Source of the DNA: Bacteroidota bacterium
GTDB taxonomy: Bacteria; Bacteroidota; Ignavibacteria; UBA10030; SZUA-254
DNA: 64,000 nt
Assembly (NCBI GenBank): GCA_044449065.1
Contig: JBIOHP010000002.1
Location: forward strand, 117,462 to 181,461
Direction: 5' to 3'
Every line of letters starts with the position of its first letter. The stretch's first letter is position 1. The notes below the pieces were generated by a model, which was given only the letters and a program-made list of their open reading frames with translations, had not been told where the DNA came from and did no database searches. Of the stretch, positions 4,067 to 52,680 are shown one piece after another. A program made the position numbers and the translations under genes.

Positions 4067-5920
4067 ATGAAACGTTTAATAATATTCAAAGCCCTCATAT
4101 CGCTGGTTTTTACAGTATTGTTTTTTATGTTTTGGCCCACCAATTTGGTATGGGATGACGCCGGAATAATATTGAAGTACATGGACAATTTTAGGAACGG
4201 TTACTTCTATTCTTACAATCCTTCCGATGGTCCGGTATTTGGAATTTCAAGTTTTACCCACGGTCTCTTATCAGGATTTTTTGCCTTCACTCATATTTTT
4301 TCTCCTTTAAATAGTTTATTTGCGAGCAATTTCATCGGCTTGTTTTTCGTCTCTTTCCTCTCGCTCCATTTGATATCCCGGTATGAATATAATTTTTCAG
4401 TAATCTGGTTTGCATGGCTTCTATTAATGTGTTCGTCGCAGGATTTTGTCTGCAATATTAAACAGGGAATGGAGATTCCGCTGTACCTTGCAATACTCCT
4501 GGGATGTTTTCACTTCTATCTGAAAAACGACGTGAGATGGATGTTCGCGTTCTTCTCCCTGGCAATTATTACAAAACTCGACTCTGTGCCAATTATCGGC
4601 ATGCTATTCCTCGGCTTTGTCTATAATAACCGTCAATCGCTGAAACCTTTTACATTTGCCAATAAATTATATCAACAAATTTTATTGTACGGCATCTTGC
4701 CCCTGACTGGATGGATAGTATTCAGTTTTCTGGTTTTTCGGGGACCTCTGCCGCAGGCGGCGCTCGCCAAAATGTATTATCATATGCATTCATCCGGAAG
4801 CTGGTTTCCTTTCCTGCAGCCGCTTATGGAAGGCGTAGTTCATCAAATCATTATTCTGGGAGTCGCAATTGTATTTTTTGGATACGCTCTCTATTGTATT
4901 TACACGAAACGATTCAGCGAGATATCGACAACCCTGATCTTTGGTTTAGCGGCGACGGCGTATTTACTCCTCTATTACTTTTATAACCCGGGAGAAAGAA
5001 TGGGATGGTATTATGCTATCCCGGAATTCCTCATGAGCTTACAAATGATCGTCATAGCGATCAGACTCGCTCACACCTTCATGATTCGCTGGAAACGCTC
5101 TGCGCTCATCATTATATTCATGGCTCTCCTTATCATCAGTTCTGCCGTCGTCAATAAATTTATCCAGAGAACGCTAAATTATTTAACGGTCATAGAATCC
5201 CAACGAATTGCCATCGGCGATTGGATTCATGATCATAGTAACCCCAACGATACGCTTATGGCTGGACATGGACATATCGCACGGAATTCAGGTCTGTATA
5301 CCATTGATTTTACCGGCATCAATTCAACAATTGTTACCGATTATAAACTTGATTTCGGAAAACTTGTCAATAATTTTAAACCCAGATGGATCGTGCAAGA
5401 GGGGTTTCTCGATGCTAAGTTGGAAAGGACGGCTGGATATACACTGAGAAATTCGTTCTATAATACTGCCGTTTTGAGTTATCCGCCGGTAAGAGTATAT
5501 GAGAAATTGTCCGGAACTAATTTCACCGCCGAACATCCCATTACACCGGCGATGGTTACTACCAATGGCAAATATGAGATGCGAGCGAATGGATTATTTA
5601 TTATCGATGGGACTAGAATTTCATTCAAAAATATCGATCCTAACATTCATCTGATAAAATTTGAAGTCGGTTTAATCAGAGGGGATATCAACAACACCAT
5701 TAACGCCGAAATAACCGGCATCGATTCTAAAACATTAAAAAACTCATCATTCGAGCTACCGCGTAAAAATTTAGCCAATCCTGCCGATGGATTTAGTGAC
5801 CGATGGGTAATAGATCTTCAACCGGAATGGACCATTAAATCCGTGACACTTTTTACACAAGAATCAGCGGGAAATCCTTCAGAACATTTTATAATCGTTG
5901 ATCCGATCATTACAGAATAA
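4067..5920 (+). CDS. Polytopic integral membrane protein (about 12 TM) with a C-terminal soluble domain; possible GT-C-type glycosyl/polysaccharide-modifying enzyme
   Basis: 617 aa, highly hydrophobic N-terminal two-thirds. It heads the polysaccharide gene cluster. No specific motif recognised. Confidence 0.4.
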   Translation: MKRLIIFKALISLVFTVLFFMFWPTNLVWDDAGIILKYMDNFRNGYFYSYNPSDGPVFGISSFTHGLLSGFFAFTHIFSPLNSLFASNFIGLFFVSFLSLHLISRYEYNFSVIWFAWLLLMCSSQDFVCNIKQGMEIPLYLAILLGCFHFYLKNDVRWMFAFFSLAIITKLDSVPIIGMLFLGFVYNNRQSLKPFTFANKLYQQILLYGILPLTGWIVFSFLVFRGPLPQAALAKMYYHMHSSGSWFPFLQPLMEGVVHQIIILGVAIVFFGYALYCIYTKRFSEISTTLIFGLAATAYLLLYYFYNPGERMGWYYAIPEFLMSLQMIVIAIRLAHTFMIRWKRSALIIIFMALLIISSAVVNKFIQRTLNYLTVIESQRIAIGDWIHDHSNPNDTLMAGHGHIARNSGLYTIDFTGINSTIVTDYKLDFGKLVNNFKPRWIVQEGFLDAKLERTAGYTLRNSFYNTAVLSYPPVRVYEKLSGTNFTAEHPITPAMVTTNGKYEMRANGLFIIDGTRISFKNIDPNIHLIKFEVGLIRGDINNTINAEITGIDSKTLKNSSFELPRKNLANPADGFSDRWVIDLQPEWTIKSVTLFTQESAGNPSEHFIIVDPIITE

Positions 5921-6023
5921 ATTGATAAAGGACGGTTTTATCGTTACATTTAAAATTGTTAGATTTTGATTTTATCAATATATATATAATGGATAATTCA
6001 GAAACTGAAACAACTATAACGCC

Positions 6024-6815
6024 TTGAACACGAAAACTTCAACGATAAAAAAGAAGCCGACGCCGTTTAATCAATACTACAATATCATCCGTGAATTGGC
6101 GATTGCCGATTTTCGCCTCAAATATCATGATTCAGCGCTGGGATACGTCTGGTCCATGTTGAATCCGCTATTGATGTTCGGGGTATATTATTATGTCTTC
6201 ACCACGATTTTCCACAGCACTATTCCATCCTACCCGATCTTTCTCCTGGCAGGAATTATCAGTTACGCATTTTTCCAGGATTGTACGTTTAGCGGAATGG
6301 TTGCGCTCGGCTCAAAAGCCGGAATTATGAAGAAGATTTATTTCCCAAAAACCATTCTCATTTTTGCCGCTTCAACCACTTCAATACTATCATATGTCAT
6401 CAATTTGTTTGTGCTCTTCGCCATAACATTTATCGGGAGAGGATTTACCCCACTTGTGTTTCTTACACCAATCCCGGTTTTCTGTTTGATTTTATTTTCC
6501 ATTGGTATATCATTCATCATGGCGACGATGTATGCGTATTTCCGGGATATGGGACAGATTTGGAATGTGTTAGTCCTGGTAATCTTCTGGCTTAGTCCTG
6601 TTGTGTACAATGTTGACAATCTTCCCCAATCGATTTCCAAATTGGTCTACTTCAATCCCCTGACGAGGATTTTCGTTCTTCTTCGCCACTACCTGCTCTA
6701 CAATTATTTCGATCTACGATTTTTATTGATGACGATTATTTATTCTGTCCTCACCTATCTGATAGGATACGTTATCTTTCGGAAATATCAGGATAGCCTT
6801 GCGGAGTTATTTTAA
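6024..6815 (+). CDS. wzm: ABC-2 type polysaccharide export permease (Wzm/KpsM/TagG-like)
   Basis: 263 aa, 6 TM, typical ABC-2 permease layout. TTG start. The stop overlaps the start of the downstream ATPase (TAAATG). Confidence 0.75.
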   Translation: MNTKTSTIKKKPTPFNQYYNIIRELAIADFRLKYHDSALGYVWSMLNPLLMFGVYYYVFTTIFHSTIPSYPIFLLAGIISYAFFQDCTFSGMVALGSKAGIMKKIYFPKTILIFAASTTSILSYVINLFVLFAITFIGRGFTPLVFLTPIPVFCLILFSIGISFIMATMYAYFRDMGQIWNVLVLVIFWLSPVVYNVDNLPQSISKLVYFNPLTRIFVLLRHYLLYNYFDLRFLLMTIIYSVLTYLIGYVIFRKYQDSLAELF

Positions 6816-7559
6816 ATGATTTCCGTCTCCCACCTCTCGAAAATATTTCGTCTTCCCCATGCCCGGAAAAAAACGTTATTCCACAATCTCACATCCATTA
6901 TGTCGGGTGGATACGAGTATGAACAATTGTTTGCATTAAATGACATTTCGTTTCGGGTAAACCGTGGTGAATTCCTAGGAATTATCGGAAGAAACGGTTC
7001 CGGAAAATCCACACTTCTCAAAGTTATTGCGAGAATCTATCAACCGACAAGCGGCGAGGTCCTCGTTGAGGACGATGTTTTTCCAATTCTTGAGCTTGGG
7101 GTGGGTTTCCAGCGCGATTTTACGGTCCATGATAACATCTTTCTTTACGGCTCGCTGATCGGATTCTCACGCAAACAGATGAATCAAAAAAGCAAAGAAA
7201 TACTTGAATTTGCAGAGTTGACAAGGTTTGCCGATTCAAAATTAGAGAAACTCTCATCAGGCATGCAAATGCGGTTGGGTTTCGCAATTGCCATCCAATC
7301 AGTCGCACCTATCATGCTTGTCGATGAAGTTCTGGCTGTGGGGGATAAAATTTTCATTGAGAAATGTAAGAAGACCTTTTGGCAATTGAAAAAATCGGGC
7401 ACCACCATCATATTGGTAAGCCACGATAACGAGGCAATCAGGGAATTCTGCGATCGTGTGTTGGTATTAAATGAAGGGAAATTAGTGTACGATGGGAAGA
7501 CAGCCGATTCGATTGAATATTATGATCGAAACATTCTCGGCGTTTCCCAACCTTCCTGA
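6816..7559 (+). CDS. wzt: ABC transporter ATP-binding protein for polysaccharide export (Wzt/KpsT/TagH-like), nucleotide-binding domain only
   Basis: Walker A GRNGSGKST, ABC signature LSSGMQMRL, Walker B LVDE. 247 aa, so no C-terminal carbohydrate-binding extension. Confidence 0.85.
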   Translation: MISVSHLSKIFRLPHARKKTLFHNLTSIMSGGYEYEQLFALNDISFRVNRGEFLGIIGRNGSGKSTLLKVIARIYQPTSGEVLVEDDVFPILELGVGFQRDFTVHDNIFLYGSLIGFSRKQMNQKSKEILEFAELTRFADSKLEKLSSGMQMRLGFAIAIQSVAPIMLVDEVLAVGDKIFIEKCKKTFWQLKKSGTTIILVSHDNEAIREFCDRVLVLNEGKLVYDGKTADSIEYYDRNILGVSQPS

Positions 7560-7568
7560 ATAATATTT

Positions 7569-8597
7569 CTACCTCAACTCCGATTCCTTCCGGCTAAATC
7601 CTTTTAATATCCCCGCTACACTCCCCACAAAACAAACCAGGTGATCTACCAATAAAAATGGCGTCATCACGATCATGGCAAAAAGACCGCGCACCTGCTC
7701 GAGGTAATTAAGAAAACGGATGTTGAGAAGAATATACACGCCCATCAACGGGAGAAGATACTCATACGATATGAATCCTAACACTGCAGAAATCAGAGCG
7801 ACGAACAGCAAGACGACAAAGAGCGTTGAGATGACAAATGAAGGATAGACATTCACAAAACCCCGTTTAACCGATCCACGAGTTTCTCCTAACTGAGTTG
7901 CTAATTCGGCAAACCCCTCGCTTCGGTGATATTCATTCCGGATGAACGATGCAAGGGTATATCGTTTAAGGTGTTCAACTTCGATATCCATATTTAAGTG
8001 GATGTTGAGTTTTGCTTTTGAAAATCTCTTCCCCAGCTCAATATCGTCGTGACCATGAACGGCGAGCAGTTCGACATTGAATCCACCTAACTGCTGGAAC
8101 GCAGCGCGTTTTATCCCTGATATTGCTCCGAACAGCCAATCGATTTCCGGCAAGCTTTTAATGTATGAATACCGCACCCACAGATTTTTATACTGGCTGA
8201 CGAGATTTTCATGCCGGTGTTGCGCTGTGTATATTCCCACCACCGCATCGAGCCCTTCTTCGCTCAACGATTCAACAATGCCTAAAATAGTTTCGCGGCG
8301 AATGACAATATCGGAATCAATGAAGATGAAAATATCACCTTGTGCATGGCTCGCGCCAAAATTTCGCGCATTATTAGCGCCTTTCCCTTCACCGACTTCC
8401 AGCAGGTTTATCTCAAATTGCCGCGCAATCTCCCTGGTTGAATCGGTTGAATGATCATCAACCACGATAACTTCTATGTTCTTGTAATAGGATCGCTTGA
8501 TCGAAACCAGGCAGGTCTGAATAGTTGCCGCGCCATTCCTTACGGGAATGATCACCGAAACGAGTGGACTATATTCAGACGTGAAGCTTAACGCCAT
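7569..8597 (-). CDS. Glycosyltransferase family 2 with C-terminal TM helices
   Basis: VSVIIPVRNGAATI...VVDDHSTD GT-A N-terminus with a DxD-like motif. Hydrophobic C-terminus. Confidence 0.8.
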   Translation of the reverse strand: MALSFTSEYSPLVSVIIPVRNGAATIQTCLVSIKRSYYKNIEVIVVDDHSTDSTREIARQFEINLLEVGEGKGANNARNFGASHAQGDIFIFIDSDIVIRRETILGIVESLSEEGLDAVVGIYTAQHRHENLVSQYKNLWVRYSYIKSLPEIDWLFGAISGIKRAAFQQLGGFNVELLAVHGHDDIELGKRFSKAKLNIHLNMDIEVEHLKRYTLASFIRNEYHRSEGFAELATQLGETRGSVKRGFVNVYPSFVISTLFVVLLFVALISAVLGFISYEYLLPLMGVYILLNIRFLNYLEQVRGLFAMIVMTPFLLVDHLVCFVGSVAGILKGFSRKESELR

Positions 8598-8636
8598 CTA
8601 GTGTTCAAGAAAAATAATGTATCGGATCGGAAACCA

Positions 8637-9515
8637 TTATTTCAATAACCGAAGGAGGTATTCGCCATAATTATTCTTACTCATCGTTTCGGCAATCGTT
8701 CGCAACCTAGCGGCATCGATATAGCGCTGGGTAAAAGCGATTTCTTCTATGCAGGCGATTTTTAATCCCTGGCGTTTTTCCATCATTGCAATAAATTCAC
8801 CCGCCTCGAGGAGACTATCATACGTGCCGGTATCTAACCACGCATATCCCCTGCCGAGAAGTTCAATCTGGAGCATGGCGCGTTTTAGATACATGTTATT
8901 AACATCTGTAATCTCCAATTCTCCGCGCCCCGAGGGTTTGATCTGTTTGGCAATTTCCACTACACGATTATCGTAAAAATAGAGACCGGTCACGGCATAG
9001 TTTGATTTGGGAGATTTTGGTTTCTCTTCAATGGACGAAACACCCCCTTTGTCATCAAAGCCGATAATACCGTAGCGATGCGGATCGTTTACGTAATATC
9101 CAAAAACCGTAGCCCCGCCTTTTGTTTCAATAAAATGCACCGTTCTACGGAGGCGTTCGGTGAGTCCGTCGCCGTAAAAAATATTATCTCCGAGAATAAG
9201 ACAAACATTGTCCTTACCAATAAACCGTTCGCCGATCAGAAACGATTGAGCGAGCCCTTCGGGTTTTGGCTGCGCAGCATAACTAAAATGGAGGCCAAGG
9301 TTTGAACCATCGCCGAATAAATCCTGAAATTTTGGTAACTCATCCGGCGTCGAGATTATCAGAATATCCCGGATTTCTGCCAGCATCAGCACCGATAAAG
9401 GATAATAGATCATCGGTTTATCGTAGATCGGGAGGAGCTGTTTACATACCGAAAGTGTGAGTGGATATAACCGGGTGCCTGTTCCGCCTGCTAATATGAT
9501 GCCCTTCATTGCCAT
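8637..9515 (-). CDS. rfbA: Glucose-1-phosphate thymidylyltransferase
   Basis: [19 protein letters not shown]-terminus and overall RmlA pattern. Confidence 0.85.
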
Positions 9516-9549
9516 AGCTTGTAATTACAGGTAAATGATTGTCTGATGA

Positions 9550-10497
9550 TTAACCAAGTGTTTTGCGATGCTCAACATACCATTGGATTGTTTTTTTAAG
9601 TCCTTCTTCAAAACCGGTTTTTGATCGAAAACCGAATTCTTTTTCCGCACGCTGGGTGTCAAGGCAACGGCGCGGCTGACCGTTTGGTTTTGATTTATCC
9701 CAGGTTATCTTCCCCGCGAAACCGGTATGGCGGGCGATAATAGAAACAAGATCAACTATGGATATTTCACTTCCACTTCCAAGATTGACCGGTTCTGATG
9801 AATTGAATCGCTCGGCAGCCAGCGTGATACCATCTGCAGCATCCTCCGCGTACAAGAATTCGCGGGTTGGCGAGCCATCTCCCCAAACAACAATTTCACT
9901 ATCCCCCTTCTCCCGCGCTTCGACGCATTTTTTAATCAAAGCGGGAATCACATGCGATGACTTGGGATTGAAATTATCTCTGGGTCCGTACAGATTCACA
10001 GGCAATAAATAAATTGAATTATATCCGTATTGCTGACGGTATGCCTGCGATTGCACCAGCATCATTTTTTTTGCTAAGCCATACGGGGCATTTGTTTCTT
10101 CCGGATAGCCGTTCCAGAGGTTTTCTTCCTTAAACGGGATGGGGCAGAATTTCGGATATGCGCAGATGGTGCCAATGGCAACAAATTTGGGGATTCCCAT
10201 CAACCGGGCATGTTCAAGAAGCTGAATCCCCATGAGAGCGTTATCGTAAAAGAATGTGCCGGGGTTTTCGCGGTTGGCGCCAATGCCGCCGACTACCGAG
10301 GCGAGGTGAATCACCATATCGGCTTTTGATTTTTCATAGAGCGCTTTTATAACGCTTTGTTCACGCAAATCGTACTCTCTTTTCCGGGGAACAATGATGT
10401 TTTTGCATCCCAGCGACTGAAGTTTAGCGAGAACGTAACTGCCGAGGAAACCCCCGCCGCCGGTTACGATGACTGTTTTTGAATTCCAGAATGACAT
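9550..10497 (-). CDS. fcl: GDP-L-fucose synthase (GDP-4-keto-6-deoxymannose 3,5-epimerase/4-reductase) family
   Basis: GxxGxxG at the N-terminus, YxxxK, and close similarity to Fcl over SHVIPALI...[13 protein letters not shown]. Confidence 0.75.
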
Positions 10498-10581
10498 TAG
10501 TTCAATCCCTTAAGAGTTCGAATTCAGAATTATTGATTCGTTTAAACAATTTTTACTTTCCATGCCGTTTTCCAACAATAC

Positions 10582-11427
10582 CTATAGAGAGGTATGAACA
10601 GAACGATGCATACACTGGCTAAGGGCTGTCCGTGATTTTGATCCCCGCACAAAAAATAGATTTTTAAAAAATGAGCCGATCAATGCCGCAATAAATGAAA
10701 ATAAATATCCCAAATATTCCGCACCGACTGGTTTTCCCCAGTGTCTTACCGAAACCCGGTGTAATTCCCAAATCCATGGAGAGATAACATGGTGCATACC
10801 CTTCCCCGTTTTAGAAGATTCATACAGCCGCAAGTTGGAAAGTGCATACGGAATATACTGTAACGTATAGCGGTGCGTTAATCGAATAAAATATTCCTGG
10901 TCCATCACATACTGTAAGCTCTCATCAAGATAACCGACTTCCTGAAACACTTGTCTTCGATAAAAAAAGGACGGCTGGACATACTCGCACGACCATGTCC
11001 AGTATTTCACCAGGTTTTCATATGTCATGCCGCGGGTGAGCATAGGTTTGGTTTCTCTTCCCCCGGCATCGATTTCATATCCATCTCCATAGACAACCAT
11101 TACATGAGGATCGCTGAAGGCATCATTGACTTTTTTAAAAATATTCGGACGGTACATATCATCGGAATTTACCCAGCCGACGATCTCCCCTTTTGCCATC
11201 TTGAATCCTTTATTGAGAGCGTGCGCTTGCCCATTATCCGGCTCGGATACCCATCGCAGGTGAGGATACTTTTTAAGAATATCTATTGTGCCGTCCGTCG
11301 AACCGCCGTCGATGATGATATGCTCCACATCGGAGAAATCCTGATTCATCACACTTTGGATATTCGCCTCGATAAATGAAGCTTGATTATACGAGGGAGA
11401 TATAATTGAGAACCGGGGTGAATTCAC
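10582..11427 (-). CDS. Glycosyltransferase family 2
   Basis: FSIISPSYNQASFIEANIQSVMNQ...IIIDGGSTDGT GT-A fold N-terminus. Confidence 0.8.
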   Translation of the reverse strand: MNSPRFSIISPSYNQASFIEANIQSVMNQDFSDVEHIIIDGGSTDGTIDILKKYPHLRWVSEPDNGQAHALNKGFKMAKGEIVGWVNSDDMYRPNIFKKVNDAFSDPHVMVVYGDGYEIDAGGRETKPMLTRGMTYENLVKYWTWSCEYVQPSFFYRRQVFQEVGYLDESLQYVMDQEYFIRLTHRYTLQYIPYALSNLRLYESSKTGKGMHHVISPWIWELHRVSVRHWGKPVGAEYLGYLFSFIAALIGSFFKNLFFVRGSKSRTALSQCMHRSVHTSL

Positions 11428-11597
11428 GAAAAATTTTCAATGATCGAATAGAGTTCAAATAAAAAATGTTTGTCGCTATCTTTAGATCCTGAGTGAAAAT
11501 TGTTTTGTTTATTTAGTAGCCCGTCGTTAAACGGGCGAAATAAAGAAATTCAGCATGCCGATCAGTGATCGGCTACTACAAAAAATAACTTATTACG

Positions 11598-11622
11598 CAG
11601 GCTCTTTAAAGAGCGGTTTTTT
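11598..11622 (+). terminator. Intrinsic-terminator-like hairpin (GCTCTttaaAGAGC) followed by a T7 run; no + strand gene upstream
   Basis: GGCTCTTTAAAGAGCGG followed by TTTTTTT, read directly. Confidence 0.35.
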
Positions 11623-11739
11623 TATGGTTAATGAGGTTTAAGTATAGCAAATATCGGCTTAATTCCCAAATAATCAGGGAATATTGAACAATTCCGACTA
11701 TTAATTGATATTCCTTAGGAAGCATCGTAAGCTGAATAT

Positions 11740-13014
11740 CTACCGTTTCAACCTCATTGCCTCCTGTGAAACATCAATATATTTTTTTATGAAGATATCC
11801 AATGTAAAATGATCAAGAACTCTCTTACTCCCAGCTTTGCCGAAACGATTACGTTTTTCGGGATCATCTAACAAATTCACAATTGCATCAAAGAGTGCTT
11901 TTTTATCTCCCGACCTAACCAACCATCCGGTTTCACCGTGATTGACTTGTTCCGGGATTCCGCCCGTTTTATACGCTACCACTGCCGTTCCGCATGCCAT
12001 CGCTTCCACAACGGTACAGGGGCTATTGTCTGCCAACGTGGGGGAGACAAAAATATCCGCTGAGGAATAACACGCCCGCAAAATGTCAGGATCGCTTACC
12101 CAGCCAGTTTCTTTTCCAGCGTATTCATCCCCCAGCACCGATTTGCCCTGAAGATGTCCCACTATAAGCGTGTATATATCCGTCCGATTCTTGTACAGTA
12201 TGGAGAGCAATTCTTTAAACGTGTCAATGCCTTTGTGCTGAATAGAATTAATCCAGCTTGCGATGAAGAGAATGACTTTTTTATCCTGCGGGATTCCCAT
12301 TCGTTTGCGAGCTTGGGATTTGTCTTCCGGAAAAAATATTTTTGTGTCCACAGAACTGGGGATCACAAAACTTGGGACGTCGCGCAAAATAGAATTATTG
12401 ACATGAGATTGCAGCCACGCAGATGGCGCTACGATGACAAATTTTTTATTAGCATAAAGCATTTTCTTGAGTCCCAGTTGAAACCGGCTTCTATCGTGTT
12501 TCATTACCGGGTAAGCCGATAGCTGGGGACAATTCCCGCAGTGTTCAGCATAACGCTCACAATCAAAACTCCAGACGCACTTGCCGGTAAACGCCCACAT
12601 ATCATACAACGTCCAGACGACCGGCTTCACGTTCATCAGCGTGGGCAGCGCGAGCAGGTTGAAATAATAACCATGAATATTGTGCAAATGGATGACGTCG
12701 CTTTGCCTTACCAATTTCAAAAAGGGAATCCGCCAAGTCGACAGATAAAACAAGTATTGGGTCGAAAAAATATCGTCAAGAAGATTCCCCGCCGAATAGA
12801 GCAAATCGGGACCGGGAACGGGCTGCACAAACTCTTTCACCAGCGGATCGGCGGAATAATCAATTTTCCGGGCAAGCATTTTGCTGTTGTACCCGCGCAG
12901 GTGCAATTCTTTGCAGATTGTATAGGCGACCTTTTCCGCGCCGCCGCCGGTATTACCGGGACTTATTGCAACAATGTTTTTCATCGTCGCCGGTTCGTCT
13001 TGATTATTTTGCAT
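11740..13014 (-). CDS. Glycosyltransferase family 4 (GT-B)
   Basis: C-terminal EAMACGTAVVAYKTGGIPE motif typical of GT4. Confidence 0.8.
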   Translation of the reverse strand: MQNNQDEPATMKNIVAISPGNTGGGAEKVAYTICKELHLRGYNSKMLARKIDYSADPLVKEFVQPVPGPDLLYSAGNLLDDIFSTQYLFYLSTWRIPFLKLVRQSDVIHLHNIHGYYFNLLALPTLMNVKPVVWTLYDMWAFTGKCVWSFDCERYAEHCGNCPQLSAYPVMKHDRSRFQLGLKKMLYANKKFVIVAPSAWLQSHVNNSILRDVPSFVIPSSVDTKIFFPEDKSQARKRMGIPQDKKVILFIASWINSIQHKGIDTFKELLSILYKNRTDIYTLIVGHLQGKSVLGDEYAGKETGWVSDPDILRACYSSADIFVSPTLADNSPCTVVEAMACGTAVVAYKTGGIPEQVNHGETGWLVRSGDKKALFDAIVNLLDDPEKRNRFGKAGSKRVLDHFTLDIFIKKYIDVSQEAMRLKR

Positions 13015-14131: not shown

Positions 14132-14279
14132 GATCGTAGACGTCCGGTTAGATAGTCGTTAAGTGGTGTTCGAGTCTGTACAAAAAGCTACACTCTAGCG
14201 TTAAAAAAGATTTAAAGTTTCGCAATTTATATCGATATGAGGAGATCGCCCGCCCGAACGACGCAGTCGGGCAGGCGAC

Positions 14280-14316: not shown

Positions 14317-14368
14317 TTGCGATGACTTTTTACACAGGTTTGTTCCATGACGAGTTCTTGTAAGTAAC

Positions 14369-17101
14369 TCATTGCAGGGTTAATTTTATTTTGAACGATT
14401 TATCACCCTTTTGGTCAAACCAGCCGACGCCTTCCTGCAACATGCTGAATTTCACCATGTATATCCCTAAGGGCAAAAGCTTTTGATCGGAGCCGACAGG
14501 ATTTAATTTTGATGTGATTTCGATTTCTTCCCCCGGTTCAACAGCATGCGGAAGATCAACCCGCTGTTCAACTACTTCTTTACCGGGATCTTTTTCGGAG
14601 AACCACATAATACCTAACCGCACTGCGCCAATTGGCGATGGCAAGTCGGTAAGGCAGGGCCAAACCTTATTGCCGTTGTTTCGTATTCTTGCGCGATATT
14701 GCAGAGATTTTGCTGTATCCGCCATACTGCCGATATTAATAATATCAATTTGTATTGATGATCGCAGAGCCGGCAGCGCAAGCGGAGCCGCCGTAAGCGG
14801 ATGATAATGATCAAGAAGCGTAATGCCGTTTAAATAAACCCCCAGGGTCCGTGTATCACCGCTATTCGGCATTGTCTTCGCAGGAACAAAACTATCACTT
14901 TTTACCTCGATGAGCAGGTTTTTTGATATTGGGACGCCATCTAAACTTAACACTTTCGCCCAGTTTCCCTGTGCAACTGCCTGATTAAATATATCGACCT
15001 GATTCGCTTTAATATTTAAATTCGATAAGACAGGAGAGTTTTCTCCAAGTTCGATACGCACCGCTCTGGGCAGATGATTTGAATTGATAGGAATATTAAA
15101 AGAAGCATTACCATTTGTCCAACGGGATTGAGCATCCCGCGCGGCCGGTTCATTCAAACCCGATTCTTCGATGCCAAAATATTGCCGACCGCCAATTTTT
15201 ACATTGATAAAATCATCCTTCAATCCGGTTACAGTATAAATATCCACATTTCGTTCATCGAAAATGATACTATCAGGCAAGGGATTAGTCACGGTTTCAA
15301 TAAACACGCGTCGTAGAAAGAAATTATCGACGTTTTTTTCAACAATCCCGTTTAAATGATGGTTTCCCTGATAGACGACATATACCGGATTACTCACAGA
15401 TGCGCTTTCGCGGATATAATTTTCAACAACTGTCCTCCCGGGATCATTATCCAGATTCATGGGAATAACCTTTCTATCAAAGGCGAGGAAAAGCGGGGTT
15501 TCCCATGTCGCCCAGGGACCTGCGTCATCGGTAAAGATCATTTTATCCTTCGGTAAATGTTCAGCCAATGATTGAATCTGTTTATAATATCCCATTTGTT
15601 CGGTCACCATGATCTGGAAGTCGTCGGCGTCAATCATAAAAATGACAATGAAGAGGGCGGCGGCAACCGAAGGTATATGTCGCATCCAGCCCTTTAAAAA
15701 ATGATCGATGAGCCAGGAGAGCCCCAATGCGGCGAAGATGGCAAAACCGGGGATGACCACGGGGATAAATCTCCGTATCAGCCAGAAGTGATCAGGAGCG
15801 ATGGAAGGATTCCAAATAAATACACTCGAAAAACCTGACGCGATCATAAGGATAACAATTATGGTTGTATCCTTTTTCCGTCGGATCACGTCCCTGAATG
15901 AAAAGAGCCATCCAATTGGAGCCGCGAAAATCACTAATGGTGAAAGATACTTTGCAAGATTTACTAACGAATTTTCTCTAAAATCCCGGGTCAGATATCC
16001 ATAAAGATCCCACACCATTGCAAAATTCCCAAAATTCGGACGGATCCAGTATGCGTAAAGAACTAATGCCACAATAATCGCGGAGAGGATCCCAAAAATC
16101 AAGCGGTGTTCAATAAATTTTTTAATGGAAGAATTGATGGCGGGACTTTTAACAAGCAAAAGAATTGCCGAAATTATCATTAAGTAATTTATTGGACGCA
16201 ATGAAGGGAAAAGTGAAATCAGGTATGGTAGGGTCGTGAATACATGATATAATGTTCCCAAAAGGAAAATCGGAAGAAAGGTTTTGTACAGTGCGAGCCA
16301 GAGAGATTCATCTTCCTGTTCACTTACGTTTGATATTATACGATAAATAAAATGGGAGATAAAAACAAACGGAATAATCATAAAACTATCGATACGGACC
16401 CAGATCGATAGACCGAGCAAGATTCCACTCCATGCCGCTAATTGTTTCACTTTAAAACGGAGTGAATAAATAAATAGAAGTAATCCCCCCCATATACAGA
16501 GCTGGGTGAATATTTCTGTCAGAGTAACATGAGTCACCCAAATCTGGCCCGGATTCAATCCGATCACGAATACCGCGGCGAGAGCAAATTGAACAGGCAG
16601 GAACAACCGGCAGAAACCGTACAAAATGCATAGAGATAGGAGACCGACAAAGCCGTTGAACCTGATTAATCCATCAAAATCGAACGTGCAAAATGCCTGC
16701 GCCAGCCACACAGGATAGAGATGCGCAAATTGAATCGTCATGGTCGAACGAGTTTCGTATATTCCCGGGTATTGTTCATGGGAATCGGCAAATATTGAAT
16801 CCTGACTTTCTGTCCAGGGATAAGGGACATCTAACCTTCCGTGGTGTGCGATATAGATTGCGTGATTTGCGTACATACCCGTATCGCGTCCCCCCACAAT
16901 CGAATCAGCGGGATGCCAGAAATAAATAAACCCTGCAACCATGAGGATAACCATAAGAGATACATCCTCCCACGAAAATGGGGGAAAATTCCCTTGCGCT
17001 GATTTGCCGGTCAGAAATTTTGAAATGAAATATCCACCTGCGACTGCCCAGCCAAGAGCTCCAACCATCGCTCCATTATAGAGATGAAAAGCCGCAAGCA
17101 T
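14369..17101 (-). CDS. Large polytopic membrane protein (about 14 TM) with a C-terminal approximately 350-aa extracytoplasmic domain; possible GT-C-fold glycosyltransferase or polymer-modifying enzyme
   Basis: 910 aa. Hydrophobic N-terminal 560 aa, soluble beta-rich C-terminal domain. Embedded in the glycan cluster. Confidence 0.4.
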   Translation of the reverse strand: MLAAFHLYNGAMVGALGWAVAGGYFISKFLTGKSAQGNFPPFSWEDVSLMVILMVAGFIYFWHPADSIVGGRDTGMYANHAIYIAHHGRLDVPYPWTESQDSIFADSHEQYPGIYETRSTMTIQFAHLYPVWLAQAFCTFDFDGLIRFNGFVGLLSLCILYGFCRLFLPVQFALAAVFVIGLNPGQIWVTHVTLTEIFTQLCIWGGLLLFIYSLRFKVKQLAAWSGILLGLSIWVRIDSFMIIPFVFISHFIYRIISNVSEQEDESLWLALYKTFLPIFLLGTLYHVFTTLPYLISLFPSLRPINYLMIISAILLLVKSPAINSSIKKFIEHRLIFGILSAIIVALVLYAYWIRPNFGNFAMVWDLYGYLTRDFRENSLVNLAKYLSPLVIFAAPIGWLFSFRDVIRRKKDTTIIVILMIASGFSSVFIWNPSIAPDHFWLIRRFIPVVIPGFAIFAALGLSWLIDHFLKGWMRHIPSVAAALFIVIFMIDADDFQIMVTEQMGYYKQIQSLAEHLPKDKMIFTDDAGPWATWETPLFLAFDRKVIPMNLDNDPGRTVVENYIRESASVSNPVYVVYQGNHHLNGIVEKNVDNFFLRRVFIETVTNPLPDSIIFDERNVDIYTVTGLKDDFINVKIGGRQYFGIEESGLNEPAARDAQSRWTNGNASFNIPINSNHLPRAVRIELGENSPVLSNLNIKANQVDIFNQAVAQGNWAKVLSLDGVPISKNLLIEVKSDSFVPAKTMPNSGDTRTLGVYLNGITLLDHYHPLTAAPLALPALRSSIQIDIINIGSMADTAKSLQYRARIRNNGNKVWPCLTDLPSPIGAVRLGIMWFSEKDPGKEVVEQRVDLPHAVEPGEEIEITSKLNPVGSDQKLLPLGIYMVKFSMLQEGVGWFDQKGDKSFKIKLTLQ

Positions 17102-17384
17102 TGCAATCGGAACCGACCAACATGCAATACCGATCGTTGTTAAAATCGCAAAATATACAACATTGGATACTTTAAGCGAGATTGATCCCCCTCCTGTATA
17201 TTGAAATAAAATATAGCCGGTACAAGGAAGGGCGAGCCAGATACCGCTGGATAGAACATGAGTTACGATATTAATAGATTACCTCTGGATGCATCTATAG
17301 ATAAATATTTTCTTGATCTATCTTCCCGTTACATGTATATAACTATCTGTAAAGGAATAAATTAAACATACCATGAATAATAAA

Positions 17385-18149: not shown

Positions 18150-18229
18150 AGACTTCTAAAAATTTATTCCTTACATCGTTTTCTAACTTGGGATTCTGCT
18201 CTATTCCGGTTTACTGGGTCTTGTTCATG

Positions 18230-21076
18230 TTACGAGGAGATGAATTTAAATCCATTTTGTCCGAGTTGTGCGCTCGTATAATTATCGGAAAGAAGATACT
18301 CCAAACATTCCGCCGCTTCGGCAGGGTTAGTATAATAGAGTCCGCATTTTGACTGCACGCAAAGATTTCTTAACTGTGCATTCCCTTCAGGAACGAGCAG
18401 GGGAATTTTGTGCAACAGTCCCCGTAAAACCGCTTGCAGAGTGCACTGCGGATCAACTACCCAATAAATTTTAGCATGGAGCATTTGATCGTTGTCCATC
18501 CAGTCAGCCATGACAAAGTTGACCGGTTTTGAATATTTTTTTGTAAACAGGTCGAGCGCGTCCATGGCGTCTTTTGAGAAACCCGAACCCGCGCATACCA
18601 CAAGCGGCATAGCCGCAGAGTGCGCTCCGTTCGTTCCCGGCTCGTACTCCGCCAGTATCTTACGCGTTTGACTTTCAAACGTATTAGTTTGGATAATGCG
18701 GTATGCATTCTCCCCAAAAGTTTTTAGATGATCAGGATGGTCGATGAGGCGGTCCATCGCTCCGGCAAGCTGGCGCGCGTTCCCGGCGTCAAAGAGGTAT
18801 CCCGTTTTGCCGTCGGTCACTATTTCCGGTATCCCGCCGATACGGGAGGCGATCACCGGCGTACGCGCCGCCATCGCCTCGGTGATTGTGACCGGCTGAT
18901 TTTCGGGCCAAATGGAAGCAAGAATCAGCACGTCTGTCTGCCGGAAAATTTCTTCGATATTATTATTTTCGACCATACCGAAGAAATTCACCGCGGTTTC
19001 GAATCCCATTTCCTTCACCTGCTTCTTATACGATTCCAATCGGTCGCCGGTCCCGACAATATTTATCTTCACACGATCTGGGTGTTTCAGAAACGGCAGC
19101 GCTTCAAAAATGACATGCACGCCTTTATGCCTGCCAAGATAACCGATAAATGTGAAACGGATGAATCCGTTTGCCGGTGTTTTTACCAGAGAGGCATACC
19201 TTTCAACATCGATCCCATACGAAATCACCTTTATCTTATCATTTTGGAATCCCGCTTTCCGGTACGCACAAGCCAGGTAATTACTTGGAGGAAGAAAAAG
19301 ATCGGATTCGCCTAAGGTCAATGAGAGATAATCTTTCCGCAGCCGTATGGGAACCGGCGCACCGTTATCCGAAGAGCTGTGTGACAAACAATCGGTGCAA
19401 TTCGCAAAGTTATCGCAAATTGTTCCATCCGGTTTGAGCAGCGTATTATTCAGACAAAATCCCCAGTGATCGTGCAGCGTGACAACGGTTTTGATATGTC
19501 TCTTCCCCGCCGCGTGGATCAAACCGGCGGAAAGCCCGGTGATATTATGAAAATGGACGACGTCCGGCGCGAACGAATCCAGCGTTTCGGCAAACCGCGC
19601 TTCCACCTCTTTATGGACAAAATTGAAATACTCCGAGCTGTAATCCTTCGGATGGAGAGCAACCCGCACCACGGGCAAGCCCTCGTACTCGTCCCTCCAG
19701 ACGGAGTGCCGTTCCTGCGTTTCCGTGGGATATCCCGCGAAGATGAGAACGTCATTCCCCTTTTTCTTGATCTCCTTTGCCTGGTAGTGAGCGATTAACT
19801 CCGCTCCGCCGATAAAATTGGGAGGGTAAGCATTTGCGCAGAAGATGATTTTCTTTTTCCCGTACGTCGCCTTGAGAACATCTTCAGCTTTTTTCCCTAT
19901 GGTATTCCACGTATATTCGCGCAGAACTTTTTCCCTGCCCACTCTCCCCATCCGTTCAAGAGATTTTGCGTCCTTCAATGCATATAATAATTTATTCTTT
20001 AAATCAAGGACGTCTCCGTACCGTGAAAGGATACCCTCCTTCCCGATTATATTCGGCATGGCTCCCTCGGTGGTTCCAAGAACCGGCGTGCCGCAAATCC
20101 ACGCTTCCAGAAACACGATGCCGAACGCCTCATATCTTGATGGGAGCGCCATCAGATCGCTGATGGAGAGAAGGTTCACTTTATCCTGATGGGACAACAG
20201 ACCGAGATCGATGATCGACGCCTTATCCGCCGAAGAAAGTTTTGCGTAGTATTCTTTGAACCACTCAAATGTGGGACCGACGAGGAAAACCTTTACGGGG
20301 TACTCGGGATAAATTTGCCGCATGGCTTCTATCAGCGTATCCACGCCCTTATCGGGCATTTTTCTGCCGAGAAACGTGATGATTTTTTCCGAGGGTTTTA
20401 ATCCATAGTCCCGCGCGTAACGCGCTCTGAATTTATCAAGCTCAATAGGTTGATAATCCTCCGGGTGAATGCCGCATCCGGCAACGAAAATCTTATCCGG
20501 GGAAACTCCCTTTTTCGCTATATAGTCTTTCTCAAACTCCGAATCGGCAATAACAGCGTCGCTTTTCTTCATCAGCCAATAATTAGAGCGTCGCTCGTAA
20601 TGCGGATGACCGGGGTGAAAATGGGGCACGAACGCGATTTTTTTCTTAAAATATTTCGCCAGAATCATCGCGAAAAAATTATGAGGGTACGGCGCCGTAT
20701 TAAGAAATACAACGTCTGTCGCCTTGATATATCTCCACATCTTGCCGTACATTTCCACCGAGTGGGGACCGTAAAAATAGACTTTAAATATTTTATCGAG
20801 GATAATCCGGTACACAAGATGATAAAAATGGTGGATCGGCAGGGAGCGGTCAAACCGGCGCACCTTCACTCCATGATCGAATTCAAATTTTCCGAACGCT
20901 ATCGTACGGTCGCGGTCGGCGGGATCGCGCCAGAATTCTTCCTCTTTGTTCACGTTCATGGTGAGAACTGTTACATCGTGTCCGTGCCCCGCGAGATAAC
21001 GGCAAACTTCCTGGCACCATGTTTCCGAACCTCCTACTGCAGGCGGGTAACGCTGGATGATAGTCAGGATTTTCAA
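18230..21076 (-). CDS. Dual-domain glycosyltransferase (two tandem GT4 modules plus a C-terminal extra domain), WbdA-like polymerising mannosyl/glycosyltransferase
   Basis: 948 aa. MKILTIIQRYPPAVGGSE (GT4 start) and a second KIIFCANAYPPNFIGGAE module. EAWICGTPVL and EAMAARTPVIASRIGGIPE are GT4 C-terminal motifs. Confidence 0.7.
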   Translation of the reverse strand: MKILTIIQRYPPAVGGSETWCQEVCRYLAGHGHDVTVLTMNVNKEEEFWRDPADRDRTIAFGKFEFDHGVKVRRFDRSLPIHHFYHLVYRIILDKIFKVYFYGPHSVEMYGKMWRYIKATDVVFLNTAPYPHNFFAMILAKYFKKKIAFVPHFHPGHPHYERRSNYWLMKKSDAVIADSEFEKDYIAKKGVSPDKIFVAGCGIHPEDYQPIELDKFRARYARDYGLKPSEKIITFLGRKMPDKGVDTLIEAMRQIYPEYPVKVFLVGPTFEWFKEYYAKLSSADKASIIDLGLLSHQDKVNLLSISDLMALPSRYEAFGIVFLEAWICGTPVLGTTEGAMPNIIGKEGILSRYGDVLDLKNKLLYALKDAKSLERMGRVGREKVLREYTWNTIGKKAEDVLKATYGKKKIIFCANAYPPNFIGGAELIAHYQAKEIKKKGNDVLIFAGYPTETQERHSVWRDEYEGLPVVRVALHPKDYSSEYFNFVHKEVEARFAETLDSFAPDVVHFHNITGLSAGLIHAAGKRHIKTVVTLHDHWGFCLNNTLLKPDGTICDNFANCTDCLSHSSSDNGAPVPIRLRKDYLSLTLGESDLFLPPSNYLACAYRKAGFQNDKIKVISYGIDVERYASLVKTPANGFIRFTFIGYLGRHKGVHVIFEALPFLKHPDRVKINIVGTGDRLESYKKQVKEMGFETAVNFFGMVENNNIEEIFRQTDVLILASIWPENQPVTITEAMAARTPVIASRIGGIPEIVTDGKTGYLFDAGNARQLAGAMDRLIDHPDHLKTFGENAYRIIQTNTFESQTRKILAEYEPGTNGAHSAAMPLVVCAGSGFSKDAMDALDLFTKKYSKPVNFVMADWMDNDQMLHAKIYWVVDPQCTLQAVLRGLLHKIPLLVPEGNAQLRNLCVQSKCGLYYTNPAEAAECLEYLLSDNYTSAQLGQNGFKFISS

Positions 21077-21567: not shown

Positions 21568-21589
21568 ACTACTTCACAACCGGTCTGGA

Positions 21590-23446
21590 TTATCCTTTCC
21601 ATGCGATGACGGCGTAGTCCTGCGGTCCGTAAAAATGATCGTTGAACCGGTTGGACGTTTCCGTGTTCTCCGAAAGGCGCTGCGCAATATCAACCGGATG
21701 CAGTTTGAGTATCTCCACGTTGGAGAACCCTCGCGCTTCCGCCATAAATTTTACCATTTCGGACGGCAGGGGATTGCGGTGTGTGGGATCCATATAGAAC
21801 ATATTGCTCCCCACGATGACATTTTCCGGATTCGGCGTTTCAAAGATCATGACGCCACCCGGTTTTAAGACACGGAGAGCTTCGTCAAAAACTTTGATCC
21901 ACACCGCGAAGGGCAGATGTTCTATAATATGGAATCCCGTGAGCGCCCCCAAACTTTCGTCTTTAATTTGCGTCAGATAGGCGAGGATATCGCCCTGTTC
22001 CGCTTTTAAACCGAGAACGCGGCAATGCTCTACCATTGCGCCGCTGAGATCAAGCCCGAACGCTACCAATCCTTCGTCTTTCAGAACTTCCAGCCATTCG
22101 CCTCTTCCGCATCCGACATCGAGGATGGGTTGTTTTCCCGAACCGGCGCCCGCCTTCCGCACCATCGGAAGGTAAATTTTCACACGGTCTTTGATCTCGT
22201 GCCGCGAGCCGCGGTATTTATTTTCAAACGCGAGATACAATTCTTCGTTCATGGCGTCAAGCTCATGGGCAAGCACCTCAAGCTGATCCTGGTTAAAGGG
22301 ATGCGGCAATCGCCGGCGGGCTTCATCTAAAATCACCGATAACCGCCGCTCATGACCAACCATCATCGTCATCAATTTTGTGAGATGTTCCTGAAGATGA
22401 GTAACTTCCGGTCGTAAGCCCGATACCGTCTCATCCAATTTGATATTGCGATCAATGATGCTGCCCTGAGCATCTCTCACCGCGTCGAGACGACGTTCCA
22501 TATTCGATAAAACGTCAACCCTTCCTGTTAACCCGTTTATTCTCTGCTCAAACGACGTTAACCCCCCGATATTGCTTCGTATGTCGTTCACGGTACGCTC
22601 AAGCCGCCATACCGTTTCAAATTGTTCGTGAATTTGCCTGAGCTGGATATTGACAGAATTCAGATTGTCCGAATGCACTTTGACGTCGGTTCCCTGAAGC
22701 GATAATCGGTCGAAGACCGTTCTGGTTTCTTCCTCTAATTTAGATCGTAAGTTTGAGATTTTCTCATTCTGTTCCCTGAGGATTTGCTCGAGATGGGGAA
22801 TAATTTCCACACGATTTTGAACGTACGAGATATGTCTTTCCAAATCAGGAATGGAATTGAGTTTATGTGTGTTTTCACGAATTTGCCGGTCGATGCGATC
22901 TTCGATGGATGGCAGCGCCCGCAATGCTTCTGTGAGATCCTTCATGTCCGCGCGAACGGACGCGAGTTCTGATTCGAAGCCGCGCATGTCGTCCAACCGT
23001 GAACGCAGGAGTATCAGGTTATCCTGCAACGGATGCAAGCTTTCATTTAGACGGTGCATCACTTCCAGTATGGACGTATTAAACGCCTGCTGCGGTTTGG
23101 TGACGACCTGGGCGAAGTACAGAAATATCTTTCCAAAGATAGTCGCCATGCCCCGTACAATTCCGCTTTTGTAATGATTCATTTCGGGTTTTGTACTCCA
23201 GACATATTTGCGGCGCTCTGCTTCTGCAACGCGGGATGTAATCTTATCCCAATCGATGAGCGCGATTTCAGGAGTTGGACGGGGAGTTATTCCCCCCGAT
23301 GCCTGGGGAAAGGGCGGGCGTGCGTCCTTTACATCGGTTGATTTCGCGGGTAATTTCGATCCGTTATCCCCTAATTTTGCTCGTAACCGATTCATGATTT
23401 GTTCGATATCGATATCCTGAGCGGGGTCTTTCATGCTCGTACTCAT
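21590..23446 (-). CDS. Coiled-coil protein with a C-terminal SAM-dependent methyltransferase domain (candidate O-polysaccharide chain terminator / molecular ruler, WbdD-like but with reversed domain order)
   Basis: 618 aa. Residues about 130-400 are long heptad-rich helices (LRSRLDDMRGFESELASVRADMKDLTEALRAL...). C-terminus has ILDVGCGRGEWL methyltransferase motif I, acidic motif II (GLDLS) and motif post-I. Confidence 0.6.
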   Translation of the reverse strand: MSTSMKDPAQDIDIEQIMNRLRAKLGDNGSKLPAKSTDVKDARPPFPQASGGITPRPTPEIALIDWDKITSRVAEAERRKYVWSTKPEMNHYKSGIVRGMATIFGKIFLYFAQVVTKPQQAFNTSILEVMHRLNESLHPLQDNLILLRSRLDDMRGFESELASVRADMKDLTEALRALPSIEDRIDRQIRENTHKLNSIPDLERHISYVQNRVEIIPHLEQILREQNEKISNLRSKLEEETRTVFDRLSLQGTDVKVHSDNLNSVNIQLRQIHEQFETVWRLERTVNDIRSNIGGLTSFEQRINGLTGRVDVLSNMERRLDAVRDAQGSIIDRNIKLDETVSGLRPEVTHLQEHLTKLMTMMVGHERRLSVILDEARRRLPHPFNQDQLEVLAHELDAMNEELYLAFENKYRGSRHEIKDRVKIYLPMVRKAGAGSGKQPILDVGCGRGEWLEVLKDEGLVAFGLDLSGAMVEHCRVLGLKAEQGDILAYLTQIKDESLGALTGFHIIEHLPFAVWIKVFDEALRVLKPGGVMIFETPNPENVIVGSNMFYMDPTHRNPLPSEMVKFMAEARGFSNVEILKLHPVDIAQRLSENTETSNRFNDHFYGPQDYAVIAWKG

Positions 23447-52652: not shown

Positions 52653-52680
52653 ACAACTCACAATAAGGATTATTATTTTA

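Follow-up and report, generated by a model that had tools for sequence, protein, structure and literature searches.

A rare pairing of a coiled-coil terminator candidate with a Wzt lacking a carbohydrate-binding domain in a Bacteroidota polysaccharide locus

Models of glycan assembly that depends on ATP-binding cassette (ABC) transporters come from a few enterobacterial prototypes, in which the transporter itself carries a fused domain that reads the capped end of the chain. How would such a chain be terminated and exported if a locus encodes a terminator candidate and the transporter lacks the reading domain? This question is raised by a cluster of 14 genes at positions 4067-23446 of a 64-kb window, the whole stretch of DNA analysed here, which is part of a 254,870-bp contig of a Bacteroidota metagenome-assembled genome (MAG). 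The cluster encodes the exporter proteins Wzm and Wzt, a 618-amino-acid (aa) coiled-coil methyltransferase (CCMT), a 948-aa polymerase candidate with two GT4 glycosyltransferase (GT) modules, a 164-aa protein that we call p164, and two large polytopic membrane proteins of 617 and 910 aa. What is new here is modest but real. A candidate terminator/ruler module occurs, rarely, with a reader-less transporter too; the p164 family appears as a conserved and previously undescribed partner of coiled-coil terminators, fixed as the third partner in one polymerase-terminator lineage; and two GT-C families lacking useful annotation are built into such loci, one unannotated (617 aa) and the other, probably of GT-C type, embedded in the polymerase cassette (910 aa).

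Gene calls were based on Pfam and NCBIfam scans of the open reading frames (ORFs) in the window. These agree with the gene inventory between queCE and rsmI given by an earlier, sequence-only reading of the DNA, save for the 164-aa ORF, which that reading had missed. The locus encodes a Wzm ABC-2 permease and a Wzt-type nucleotide-binding domain (NBD) together with two GT2 enzymes, two GT4 enzymes and one double-GT4 protein, and is a genuine surface-polysaccharide cluster of the ABC-transporter-dependent class. No PF00953, PF02397 or Wzy_C domain, as would mark an initiating phosphoglycosyltransferase or an acceptor ligase, was found among the ORFs scanned across the window. Genes for initiating transferases and ligases often lie elsewhere in a genome, so the locus can belong to this class without them.

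Exporter, terminator candidate and their pairing

In the O9a-type arrangement a carbohydrate-binding domain (CBD) is fused to the C-terminus of Wzt, and the window Wzt has none. Its NBD aligns with that of Aquifex aeolicus Wzt (E = 7.5e-48) up to residue 232 of 247, as well as with TarH (E = 5e-45), and the protein stops where the A. aeolicus NBD stops, with a C-terminal extension of zero residues. Only 9 nt separate the wzt stop codon from the convergent next gene. A Wzt_C profile that we built from the related loci described below picks out the CBDs of known structure (6o14, 2r5o and 5hno), and in a six-frame scan of the entire window it found no match (best E = 0.26). Thus Pfam, the A. aeolicus alignment and the profile scan all confirm the earlier observation that this Wzt lacks a CBD. 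The top NCBIfam matches of Wzm and Wzt are the galactan Wzm and galactan Wzt models, and Wzm is 64% identical to the Wzm of locus L006. By NBD sequence, the window Wzt is closest to the Wzt of locus L011 and next closest to that of L018 (50% identity). Because the L018 protein carries a CBD, the comparison hints that the domain was lost in the lineage of the window Wzt.

The terminator candidate, CCMT, begins with a region (residues 1-120) that contains a hydrophobic/amphipathic stretch at about 96-115. This is followed by a predicted coiled coil of about 250 residues (120-370), whose heptad periodicity of 0.585 exceeds that of shuffled sequences (0.283 +/- 0.028) by more than 10 standard deviations; residues 124-378 also give weak matches to the coiled-coil families SMC, Rad50 and SpiroCoCo. 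The methyltransferase domain occupies residues ~400-618, with Pfam methyltransferase matches at 439-578 and a match to PDB entry 3dli at E = 2e-31. Coiled coils mark the terminators in all studied systems (PMC11231755), and the heptad signal of CCMT corresponds to the extended coiled-coil ruler of the O9a-type terminator.

The organisation of CCMT is nevertheless not that of the O9a/O3 protein WbdD, which consists of an N-terminal methyltransferase and kinase, a coiled coil, and a C-terminal region that binds the membrane and WbdA. In CCMT the methyltransferase follows the coiled coil instead of preceding it, the Pfam and NCBIfam scans found no kinase domain, and searches against the PDB returned no WbdD structure at E <= 0.01. 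Because of this reversed polarity, the lacking kinase and the absence of a match, CCMT is an analogue of WbdD and not a homologue, and the earlier description of it as 'WbdD-like' needs to be narrowed accordingly. The locus therefore departs from the O9a type in two defining respects: Wzt has no CBD, and the terminator candidate is not organised like WbdD.

The polymerase candidate has a WbdA/WbpX-like architecture and is 52-54% identical to the products of syntenic genes in L006 and L009 and 35% identical to that of L010. Past its second GT4 module lies a tail (~residues 820-948; window 18230-18620, minus strand). Reference genomes contain 266 relatives of the protein, some of them in Pseudomonas loci whose arrangement resembles that of the transport, elongation and termination (TET) operon of P. 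syringae, and CCMT homologues adjoin wzt in cyanobacterial and Pseudomonas loci. The presence of homologues of both the polymerase and the methyltransferase in TET-like loci supports a terminator-controlled ABC pathway, and to this extent the O9a-like gene logic proposed earlier stands. As a separate observation, the archaeal MAG loci L018, L056, L058 and L060 (Methanomicrobiaceae/Methanoregulaceae) encode close homologues of the second GT4 module, at 47-51% identity; L018, L058 and L060 also have wzm/wzt, and wzt is fragmented in L058 and L060.

How often do a terminator candidate and a Wzt-borne CBD occur together? A polymerase-based scan of reference genomes gave 80 loci; with the window and L010 added, 39 loci, which are not phylogenetically independent, have a Wzt within ~10 kb, and their Wzt_C calls were confirmed by Pfam. 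A CCMT homologue accompanies a Wzt_C-bearing Wzt in 27 of the 39, which include loci of cyanobacteria, Pseudomonas (P. syringae among them) and some archaea. It accompanies a short Wzt in three: the window, L011 and L069. Loci without CCMT have a short Wzt in six cases and a Wzt_C-bearing Wzt in three, L010 included. CCMT with a CBD-less Wzt is therefore a rare pairing, seen in 3 of the 30 sampled CCMT loci. The sequence-only reading had found it odd that a terminator candidate stands beside a Wzt without CBD; since 27 of the 30 CCMT loci have Wzt_C, this sense of a mismatch is now justified numerically.

A precedent makes the pairing functionally feasible by analogy. The CBD-less transporter of Klebsiella O1/O2, whose Wzt is NBD-only like that of the window, shows no substrate specificity and is able to export the terminated O3a antigen (PMC11231755).

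p164 between terminator and polymerase

The p164 gene lies between the genes for CCMT and the polymerase candidate, and its product belongs to a sizeable family. An exhaustive HMMER search recovered 135 representatives (58 at E <= 1e-10), mostly free-standing proteins of 160-170 aa from Chlorobiaceae, Binatia, Desulfobacterota, Acidobacteriota, Rokubacteria and Omnitrophota; a word-indexed homologue search with p164 had returned only p164 itself. Pfam gave nothing meaningful, Wzt_C included, on 60 family members, and the family profile matched no PDB sequence. An AlphaFold2 (AF2) model (mean pLDDT confidence 94.3) predicts an N-terminal helix at residues 2-27 and an immunoglobulin (Ig)-like beta-sandwich at 34-163.

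Gene order and fusions tie the family to polymerases and terminators. In every p164 locus, namely the window and the eight loci L011, L012, L013, L014, L015, L016, L017 and L042, with at least five lineages represented, the order is CCMT-p164-polymerase; L011 is the same contig as L006, and L012 is to be compared with L009, a related Binatia contig. In the window the TTG start codon of the polymerase gene overlaps the p164 stop codon by 4 nt (TTGA). In other genomes the p164 domain is appended C-terminally to GT2-coiled-coil proteins (14 representatives); it is also fused to a homologue of the CCMT methyltransferase (P0264, E = 2e-37; also P0297), to a GT4 domain (P0217), to a radical-SAM domain (P0248), and to a domain homologous to the polymerase tail at ~858-945 (P0265, P0270, P0274 and P0296). 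Finally, a p164 homologue coexists with a Wzt that has its own Wzt_C in four of the six loci in which both are in range (L010, L013, L017 and L042). Taken together, the conserved order, the overlap, the fusions and the coexistence with Wzt_C argue for p164 as a third subunit of the polymerase-terminator complex rather than of the transporter.

Two further observations concern the partners of p164. The polymerase tail resembles a degenerate half of a GT-B domain and is found elsewhere as a separate domain fused to p164-like domains. In L013 (Desulforhabdus sp. TSK, NZ_BQXM01000048.1), positions 5258-13689 hold wzm, a wzt with CBD, CCMT, p164 and polymerase genes and then a second p164 copy, and a second wzm/wzt pair lies within the same 23-kb stretch.

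What might p164 do in such a complex? The role that we favour, docking, is set out with the assembly model below. Alternatively, p164 could be purely a carbohydrate-binding module (CBM) of the biosynthetic complex, which grips the growing chain or its end and has no docking or transporter role; this account overlaps with our model and, in its exclusive form, seems possible but rather unlikely. The beta-sandwich with its CBD- and CBM-type structural matches would suit it, as would the conserved aromatic residues Y54, W110 and W129 and the attachment of the domain to GT2, GT4, methyltransferase and radical-SAM proteins, which is how CBMs typically occur. Additionally, the terminator of Klebsiella O7, ORF6, combines a methyltransferase-kinase, an Ig-like CBM-like domain, a coiled coil and two GT2 modules, and its Ig-like domain, known in no other terminator according to the same source, was called 'indicative of a CBM' (PMC11231755). 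The likeness of p164 to this domain is one of fold description: in both an Ig-like beta-sandwich is tied to a coiled-coil terminator, but the O7 domain is internal to one polypeptide, whereas p164 is encoded on its own and has a helix at its N-terminus. Ligand binding by p164 is a conjecture, however, and the polymerase-tail fusions and the position at the ends of coiled coils suit a protein-protein adaptor equally well. Glycan binding and docking are also not mutually exclusive.

A more far-reaching possibility is that p164 is the missing cap reader, a naturally split-off carbohydrate-binding module that would bind the methylated end of the chain, associate in trans with the NBD-only Wzt and so license export as in E. 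coli O9a. The earlier reading had suggested that the cap may be recognised differently here, and p164 is the sole candidate that we found for such a reader. Among the top 50 PDB matches of the p164 model, the best superposition is indeed with the A. aeolicus Wzt CBD, 6o14_A (rmsd 2.1 A, TM-score 0.56/0.63, E = 2.4e-4). Wzt CBDs (PF14524; 6o14, 2r5o, 5hno) and p164 thus have superposable beta-sandwiches, and two hhalign alignments of p164 with Wzt_C, although not significant (probability 8.8% and 21.8%), both place the near-invariant p164 residues Y108-D109-W110 opposite the Wzt_C motif Y-[D/H]-W. Given an inferred one-residue numbering offset, the tryptophan of this motif aligns with A. aeolicus Trp362, the lid of the 3-O-methyl pocket, mutation of which abolishes binding of lipopolysaccharide (PMC9445017). 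The hint of CBD loss from the Wzt lineage would fit as well, and a passage of PMC9445017, citing Cuthbertson 2007, describes that a separately expressed CBD restores export by a CBD-less WzmWzt in O9a.

The balance of the evidence nevertheless leans away from such a role, and we consider it improbable. p164 stands beside a true Wzt_C in four of the six informative loci, fusion to a Wzt NBD is absent from all 135 representatives of the family, and neither Pfam (for Wzt_C) nor the profile search of PDB sequences links the family to the CBD. The other top Foldseek matches of p164 include many generic Ig-like domains at similar E-values (~1e-4), and p164 differs from Wzt CBDs in lacking significant sequence similarity and in having an extra N-terminal helix and extra C-terminal strands. 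Moreover, it is the polymerase gene to which the p164 gene is coupled, while wzt lies 13.5 kb away on the other strand. The idea that p164 is simply a displaced Wzt CBD is disfavoured for three reasons: a fused homologue in L010 sits next to a Wzt_C-bearing Wzt, the same coexistence is seen in L013, L017 and L042, and an NBD fusion is lacking. Neither a Wzt_C-like nor a p164-like sequence was detected in the polymerase tail or towards the C-termini of the 617-aa and 910-aa proteins.

A related scenario, to which we give similarly little credence, is that p164 is a highly diverged relative of the Wzt CBD that left the transporter for the ruler-polymerase complex and, where Wzt has no CBD as here, hands the methyl-capped end to the NBD-only Wzt in trans. 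If this were true, a cap reader in trans would represent a new coupling of termination to export and the natural counterpart of in-trans CBD complementation.

Predicted GT-C proteins and a candidate donor synthase

A crude scan gives 7-8 hydrophobic segments in each of the 617-aa and 910-aa proteins, and the C-terminal part of both is soluble. The 617-aa protein matched no Pfam or NCBIfam family, and every one of its 60 homologues is annotated as hypothetical. An AF2 model built from a 44-sequence alignment (pLDDT 92.9, predicted TM-score 0.91) shows a membrane domain of ~390 aa and a periplasmic part with an alpha/beta and a beta-sandwich domain. When this model was compared with the PDB using Foldseek, the 18 best matches were all GT-C enzymes (E = 4e-7 to 9e-4), among them EmbC, ALG12, PglB, ArnT, AftA, AftB, ALG9, STT3 and DPY19. 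Weaker, partial matches were to beta-sandwich domains (Cry-toxin domains, xylanase modules) and presumably reflect the C-terminal beta-sandwich. Across the 44 sequences, D30-D31, right after the first transmembrane segment, are at least 90% conserved, and E136, K170 and D172 are invariant. An acidic first extracytoplasmic loop is a signature of GT-C enzymes, which D30-D31 fit. At the level of the modelled fold, the 617-aa protein is thus a GT-C enzyme.

The closest homologue of the 617-aa protein (54% identity) lies in the same order of queC-queE, GT-C, wzm, wzt (245 aa), GT2, rfbC and rfbA genes, and distant members adjoin PMT_2, YfhO-like and small GT2 genes.

The 910-aa protein itself has no Pfam match, and it matches NF047440 (LA_3751/LA_3752 putative glycosyltransferase) at E = 8e-9, below the cut-off of that model. 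Among its 106 homologues, some contain PF13231 or have been given an ArnT-family or GT39 name, and D73, after a transmembrane segment, is invariant in the family; the family profile found no match among PDB sequences. Family relationships thus make it probably a GT-C enzyme. In L006, a Chlorobiaceae MAG (hmmsearch E = 1e-22), and L009, a Binatia MAG (7e-21), the gene that follows the polymerase gene encodes a remote homologue. Some family members (P0003-P0006) reach ~1530-1590 aa with large extra regions, and one of them matches PF06799.

A possible source of donor is encoded next to wzt. The 342-aa GT2 (GT2-342) has hydrophobic segments, predicted to be transmembrane, at residues 255-273, 272-290 and 306-324, and GT2 enzymes of the same topology are found near the 910-family genes of L006 and L009 too, that is, in all three loci. 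A GT2 domain followed by C-terminal transmembrane helices is the topology of GtrB-type lipid-phosphate-sugar synthases. GT2-342 is a candidate for the synthesis of a sugar linked to polyprenyl phosphate (or another lipid), which could feed a GT-C enzyme. No lipid-phosphate-sugar flippase of the GtrA or MATE type was found between 4067 and 23446.

We conclude that the 617-aa protein is, and the 910-aa protein probably is, a GT-C enzyme, and that they would act on the periplasmic face. The suggestion of the sequence-only reading that the polytopic proteins are of GT-C type is thus supported, by the modelled fold in the case of the 617-aa protein and by family relationships in that of the 910-aa protein. 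Its remark that such proteins are unexpected in an ABC pathway does not hold, since three-component periplasmic glycosylation of ABC-exported O antigens by GT-C enzymes, like mycobacterial arabinan synthesis, is already established (PMC11127046). We compared the locus with GtrABC, the Klebsiella galactose-adding three-component system, the GT136 pentofuranose system (PMC11127046) and the mycobacterial Emb/Aft arabinosyltransferases. Like these periplasmic systems, the window has predicted GT-C proteins with periplasmic beta-sandwich/CBM-like domains that would act on ABC-exported lipid-linked glycans, and its membrane-anchored GT2 is a candidate donor synthase. Unlike the three-component systems, the window locus has no GtrA/MATE flippase and its 617-aa family has no Pfam or CAZy-type annotation; unlike accessory seroconversion modules, the 910-aa family is syntenic with the polymerase cassette itself.

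Assembly model, known systems and gene content

In the model that we favour, with moderate confidence, a ruler terminates synthesis, export is not gated by the cap, the polymer is decorated in the periplasm, and p164 serves for docking or glycan binding. A lipid-linked polysaccharide would be made by the ABC-transporter-dependent route, its chain extended by the cytoplasmic GT2 and GT4 enzymes and the double-GT4 polymerase. CCMT would act as a molecular ruler, with a coiled coil that would span ~37 nm if continuous, and the methyltransferase at its far end would cap the non-reducing end and so set chain length. p164 would most likely dock the polymerase to the base of the ruler by gripping the C-terminal tail of the polymerase; alternatively or additionally, it may provide a CBM-like grip on the nascent chain. 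The polymer would then be exported by Wzm and the NBD-only Wzt. As this step would involve no Wzt-borne cap checkpoint, capping would control length and not licence export. Finally, the two GT-C enzymes would add periplasmic residues from lipid-phosphate-sugar donors, at least one of which may be made by the membrane-anchored GT2-342.

Several points weigh against this model. Wzt_C is retained in 27 of the 30 CCMT loci, and cap gating is the norm in the family; the loss of the CBD could be offset by something unseen, 64 kb of the 255-kb contig having been examined. The window contains no initiating phosphoglycosyltransferase, lipid-phosphate-sugar flippase or ligase (WaaL or oligosaccharyltransferase), and therefore the start and the end of the pathway lie out of sight. 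The docking role of p164 draws on synteny and gene fusions, and the fold nearest to p164 is that of a cap-binding CBD. The assignment of the 910-aa protein as a probable GT-C enzyme draws on family evidence, and the likeness of GT2-342 to polyprenyl-phosphate-sugar synthases and solved GT2 enzymes is generic (for example DPMS, E = 8e-8).

It also seems doubtful, and in our view improbable, that CCMT is no terminator at all and that the locus is of the O2a type, with length set by the exporter/polymerase ratio and methyltransferases that decorate internal residues: the CBD-less Wzt does resemble O2a exporters (top NCBIfam match, galactan Wzt), and a short Wzt usually accompanies the absence of a terminator, as six of eight sampled no-CCMT loci show, but a coiled coil of ~250 residues fused to a methyltransferase is a terminator hallmark (PMC11231755), and the company of Wzt_C that CCMT homologues keep in 27 of 30 loci implies that what they make is normally a recognised cap. 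Klebsiella O2a has no coiled-coil terminator and controls length by coupling export to synthesis, whereas the window has a terminator candidate.

With ruler-terminated, ungated export as the preferred reading, the locus can be placed among known systems. It resembles E. coli O9a and Klebsiella O3 in its double-GT4 polymerase, coiled-coil methyltransferase protein and Wzm/Wzt exporter, and probably also in the recruitment of the polymerase to the ruler protein; unlike these systems it has a CBD-less Wzt, p164 as a putative extra subunit and two predicted GT-C enzymes. By gene arrangement, the closest experimentally studied system is the TET operon found in the common polysaccharide antigen locus of P. 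syringae, with the order wzm-wzt-methyltransferase-wbdA/wbpX (PMC7820976). In locus L062, from a P. syringae strain, the methyltransferase matches residues 339-616 of CCMT (E = 5e-71), and over the second GT4 module the identity between the polymerases is ~35%. Unlike that of the window, however, the Pseudomonas Wzt bears Wzt_C, and no gene for p164 or the 910-aa family was detected within 10 kb of the polymerase in the Pseudomonas loci; the 617-aa family was likewise undetected there. If p164 connects the ruler to the polymerase, or if it binds glycan as a new kind of module, it would fill a gap in what is known of the assembly of chain-length control complexes outside Enterobacteriaceae and could offer a handle for glyco-engineering. 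This question is open to experiment because a cultured carrier exists (Desulforhabdus sp. TSK).

The coordinates of the cluster genes and their flanks are given in Table 1. Both ends of the cluster are exact gene boundaries: the 617-aa ORF starts at 4067, and the minus-strand 618-aa ORF starts at 23446. The plus-strand block consists of the genes for the 617-aa protein, Wzm and Wzt; the rest of the cluster is on the minus strand and converges on wzt, in the order GT2-342, rfbA, fcl-like, the 281-aa GT2, the 424-aa and 375-aa GT4, the 910-aa protein, the 254-aa methyltransferase, the 948-aa double-GT4 protein, p164 and CCMT. Identical proteins carry the locus tags ACHQQQ_01615, ACHQQQ_01660 and ACHQQQ_01675.

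Table 1. Features of the glycan locus and its flanks (window coordinates)
Feature	Coordinates	Strand	Assignment and evidence
queC + queE	2497-3878	-	Upstream flank; Pfam/NCBIfam
617-aa protein	4067..5920	+	Predicted GT-C-fold glycosyltransferase; directly upstream of wzm-wzt, same strand
Wzm	6024..6815	+	ABC-2 permease of exporter; PF01061 (ABC2_membrane), E = 2.4e-13
Wzt, 247 aa	6816..7559	+	NBD only; ABC_tran (PF00005) sole Pfam domain
GT2, 342 aa	7569..8597	-	2-3 C-terminal hydrophobic segments; PF00535 + Glyco_transf_21
RfbA	8637..9515	-	Glucose-1-phosphate thymidylyltransferase; TIGR01207, 472 bits, above cut-off
Fcl-like short-chain dehydrogenase/reductase (SDR)	9550..10497	-	GDP-L-fucose-synthase family; NF047922, E = 5.9e-85; 285 bits, below the 500-bit cut-off
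GT2, 281 aa	10582..11427	-	Cytoplasmic glycosyltransferase; PF00535, E = 1.1e-28
GT4, 424 aa	11740..13014	-	PF00534 + PF13439
GT4, 375 aa	13004..14131	-	PF00534 + PF13439
910-aa protein	14369..17101	-	Polytopic, ArnT/PMT-related family; soluble C-terminal region ~400 aa
Methyltransferase, 254 aa	17385..18149	-	S-adenosylmethionine (SAM)-dependent; PF13649 + PF08241
Polymerase candidate, 948 aa	18230..21076	-	Two GT4 modules + C-terminal tail ~130 aa; PF00534 x2, PF13439 x2
p164, 164 aa	21073..21567	-	Predicted helix + Ig-like beta-sandwich; between CCMT and polymerase
CCMT, 618 aa	21590..23446	-	Terminator candidate; coiled coil + C-terminal SAM methyltransferase
rsmI + nadE			Downstream flank of cluster; Pfam/NCBIfam

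The sugar-nucleotide genes rfbB, rfbC, rfbD and gmd were sought in the rest of the window and not found; what lies there is essentially housekeeping genes. Amid these, ~27-32 kb past the cluster, are an extra GT4 at 50080-51372 (+) and an SDR epimerase/dehydratase (GDP_Man_Dehyd/Epimerase) at 54958-55884 (+), which may supply or extend the same glycan pathway.

The window holds a few other features of note. Four adjacent ORFs (338, 288, 240 and 237 aa) at 41785-45536 (+) have no Pfam match at E <= 1e-5. At 52603-54928 (+), an ORF that contains the EcoRII C-terminal domain comes after an N6_N4_Mtase DNA methylase; the pair is probably a restriction-modification remnant. Lastly, positions 750-2112 (-) encode three tandem pilin-like paralogues of 128, 129 and 129 aa, two of them 96% identical, with N-termini that read 'MGQQQLLLIILGVIIV...' and no Pfam match; on a related metagenomic contig, an ORF triplet of 127, 129 and 129 aa lies upstream of queC, beside type II secretion system E/F genes.

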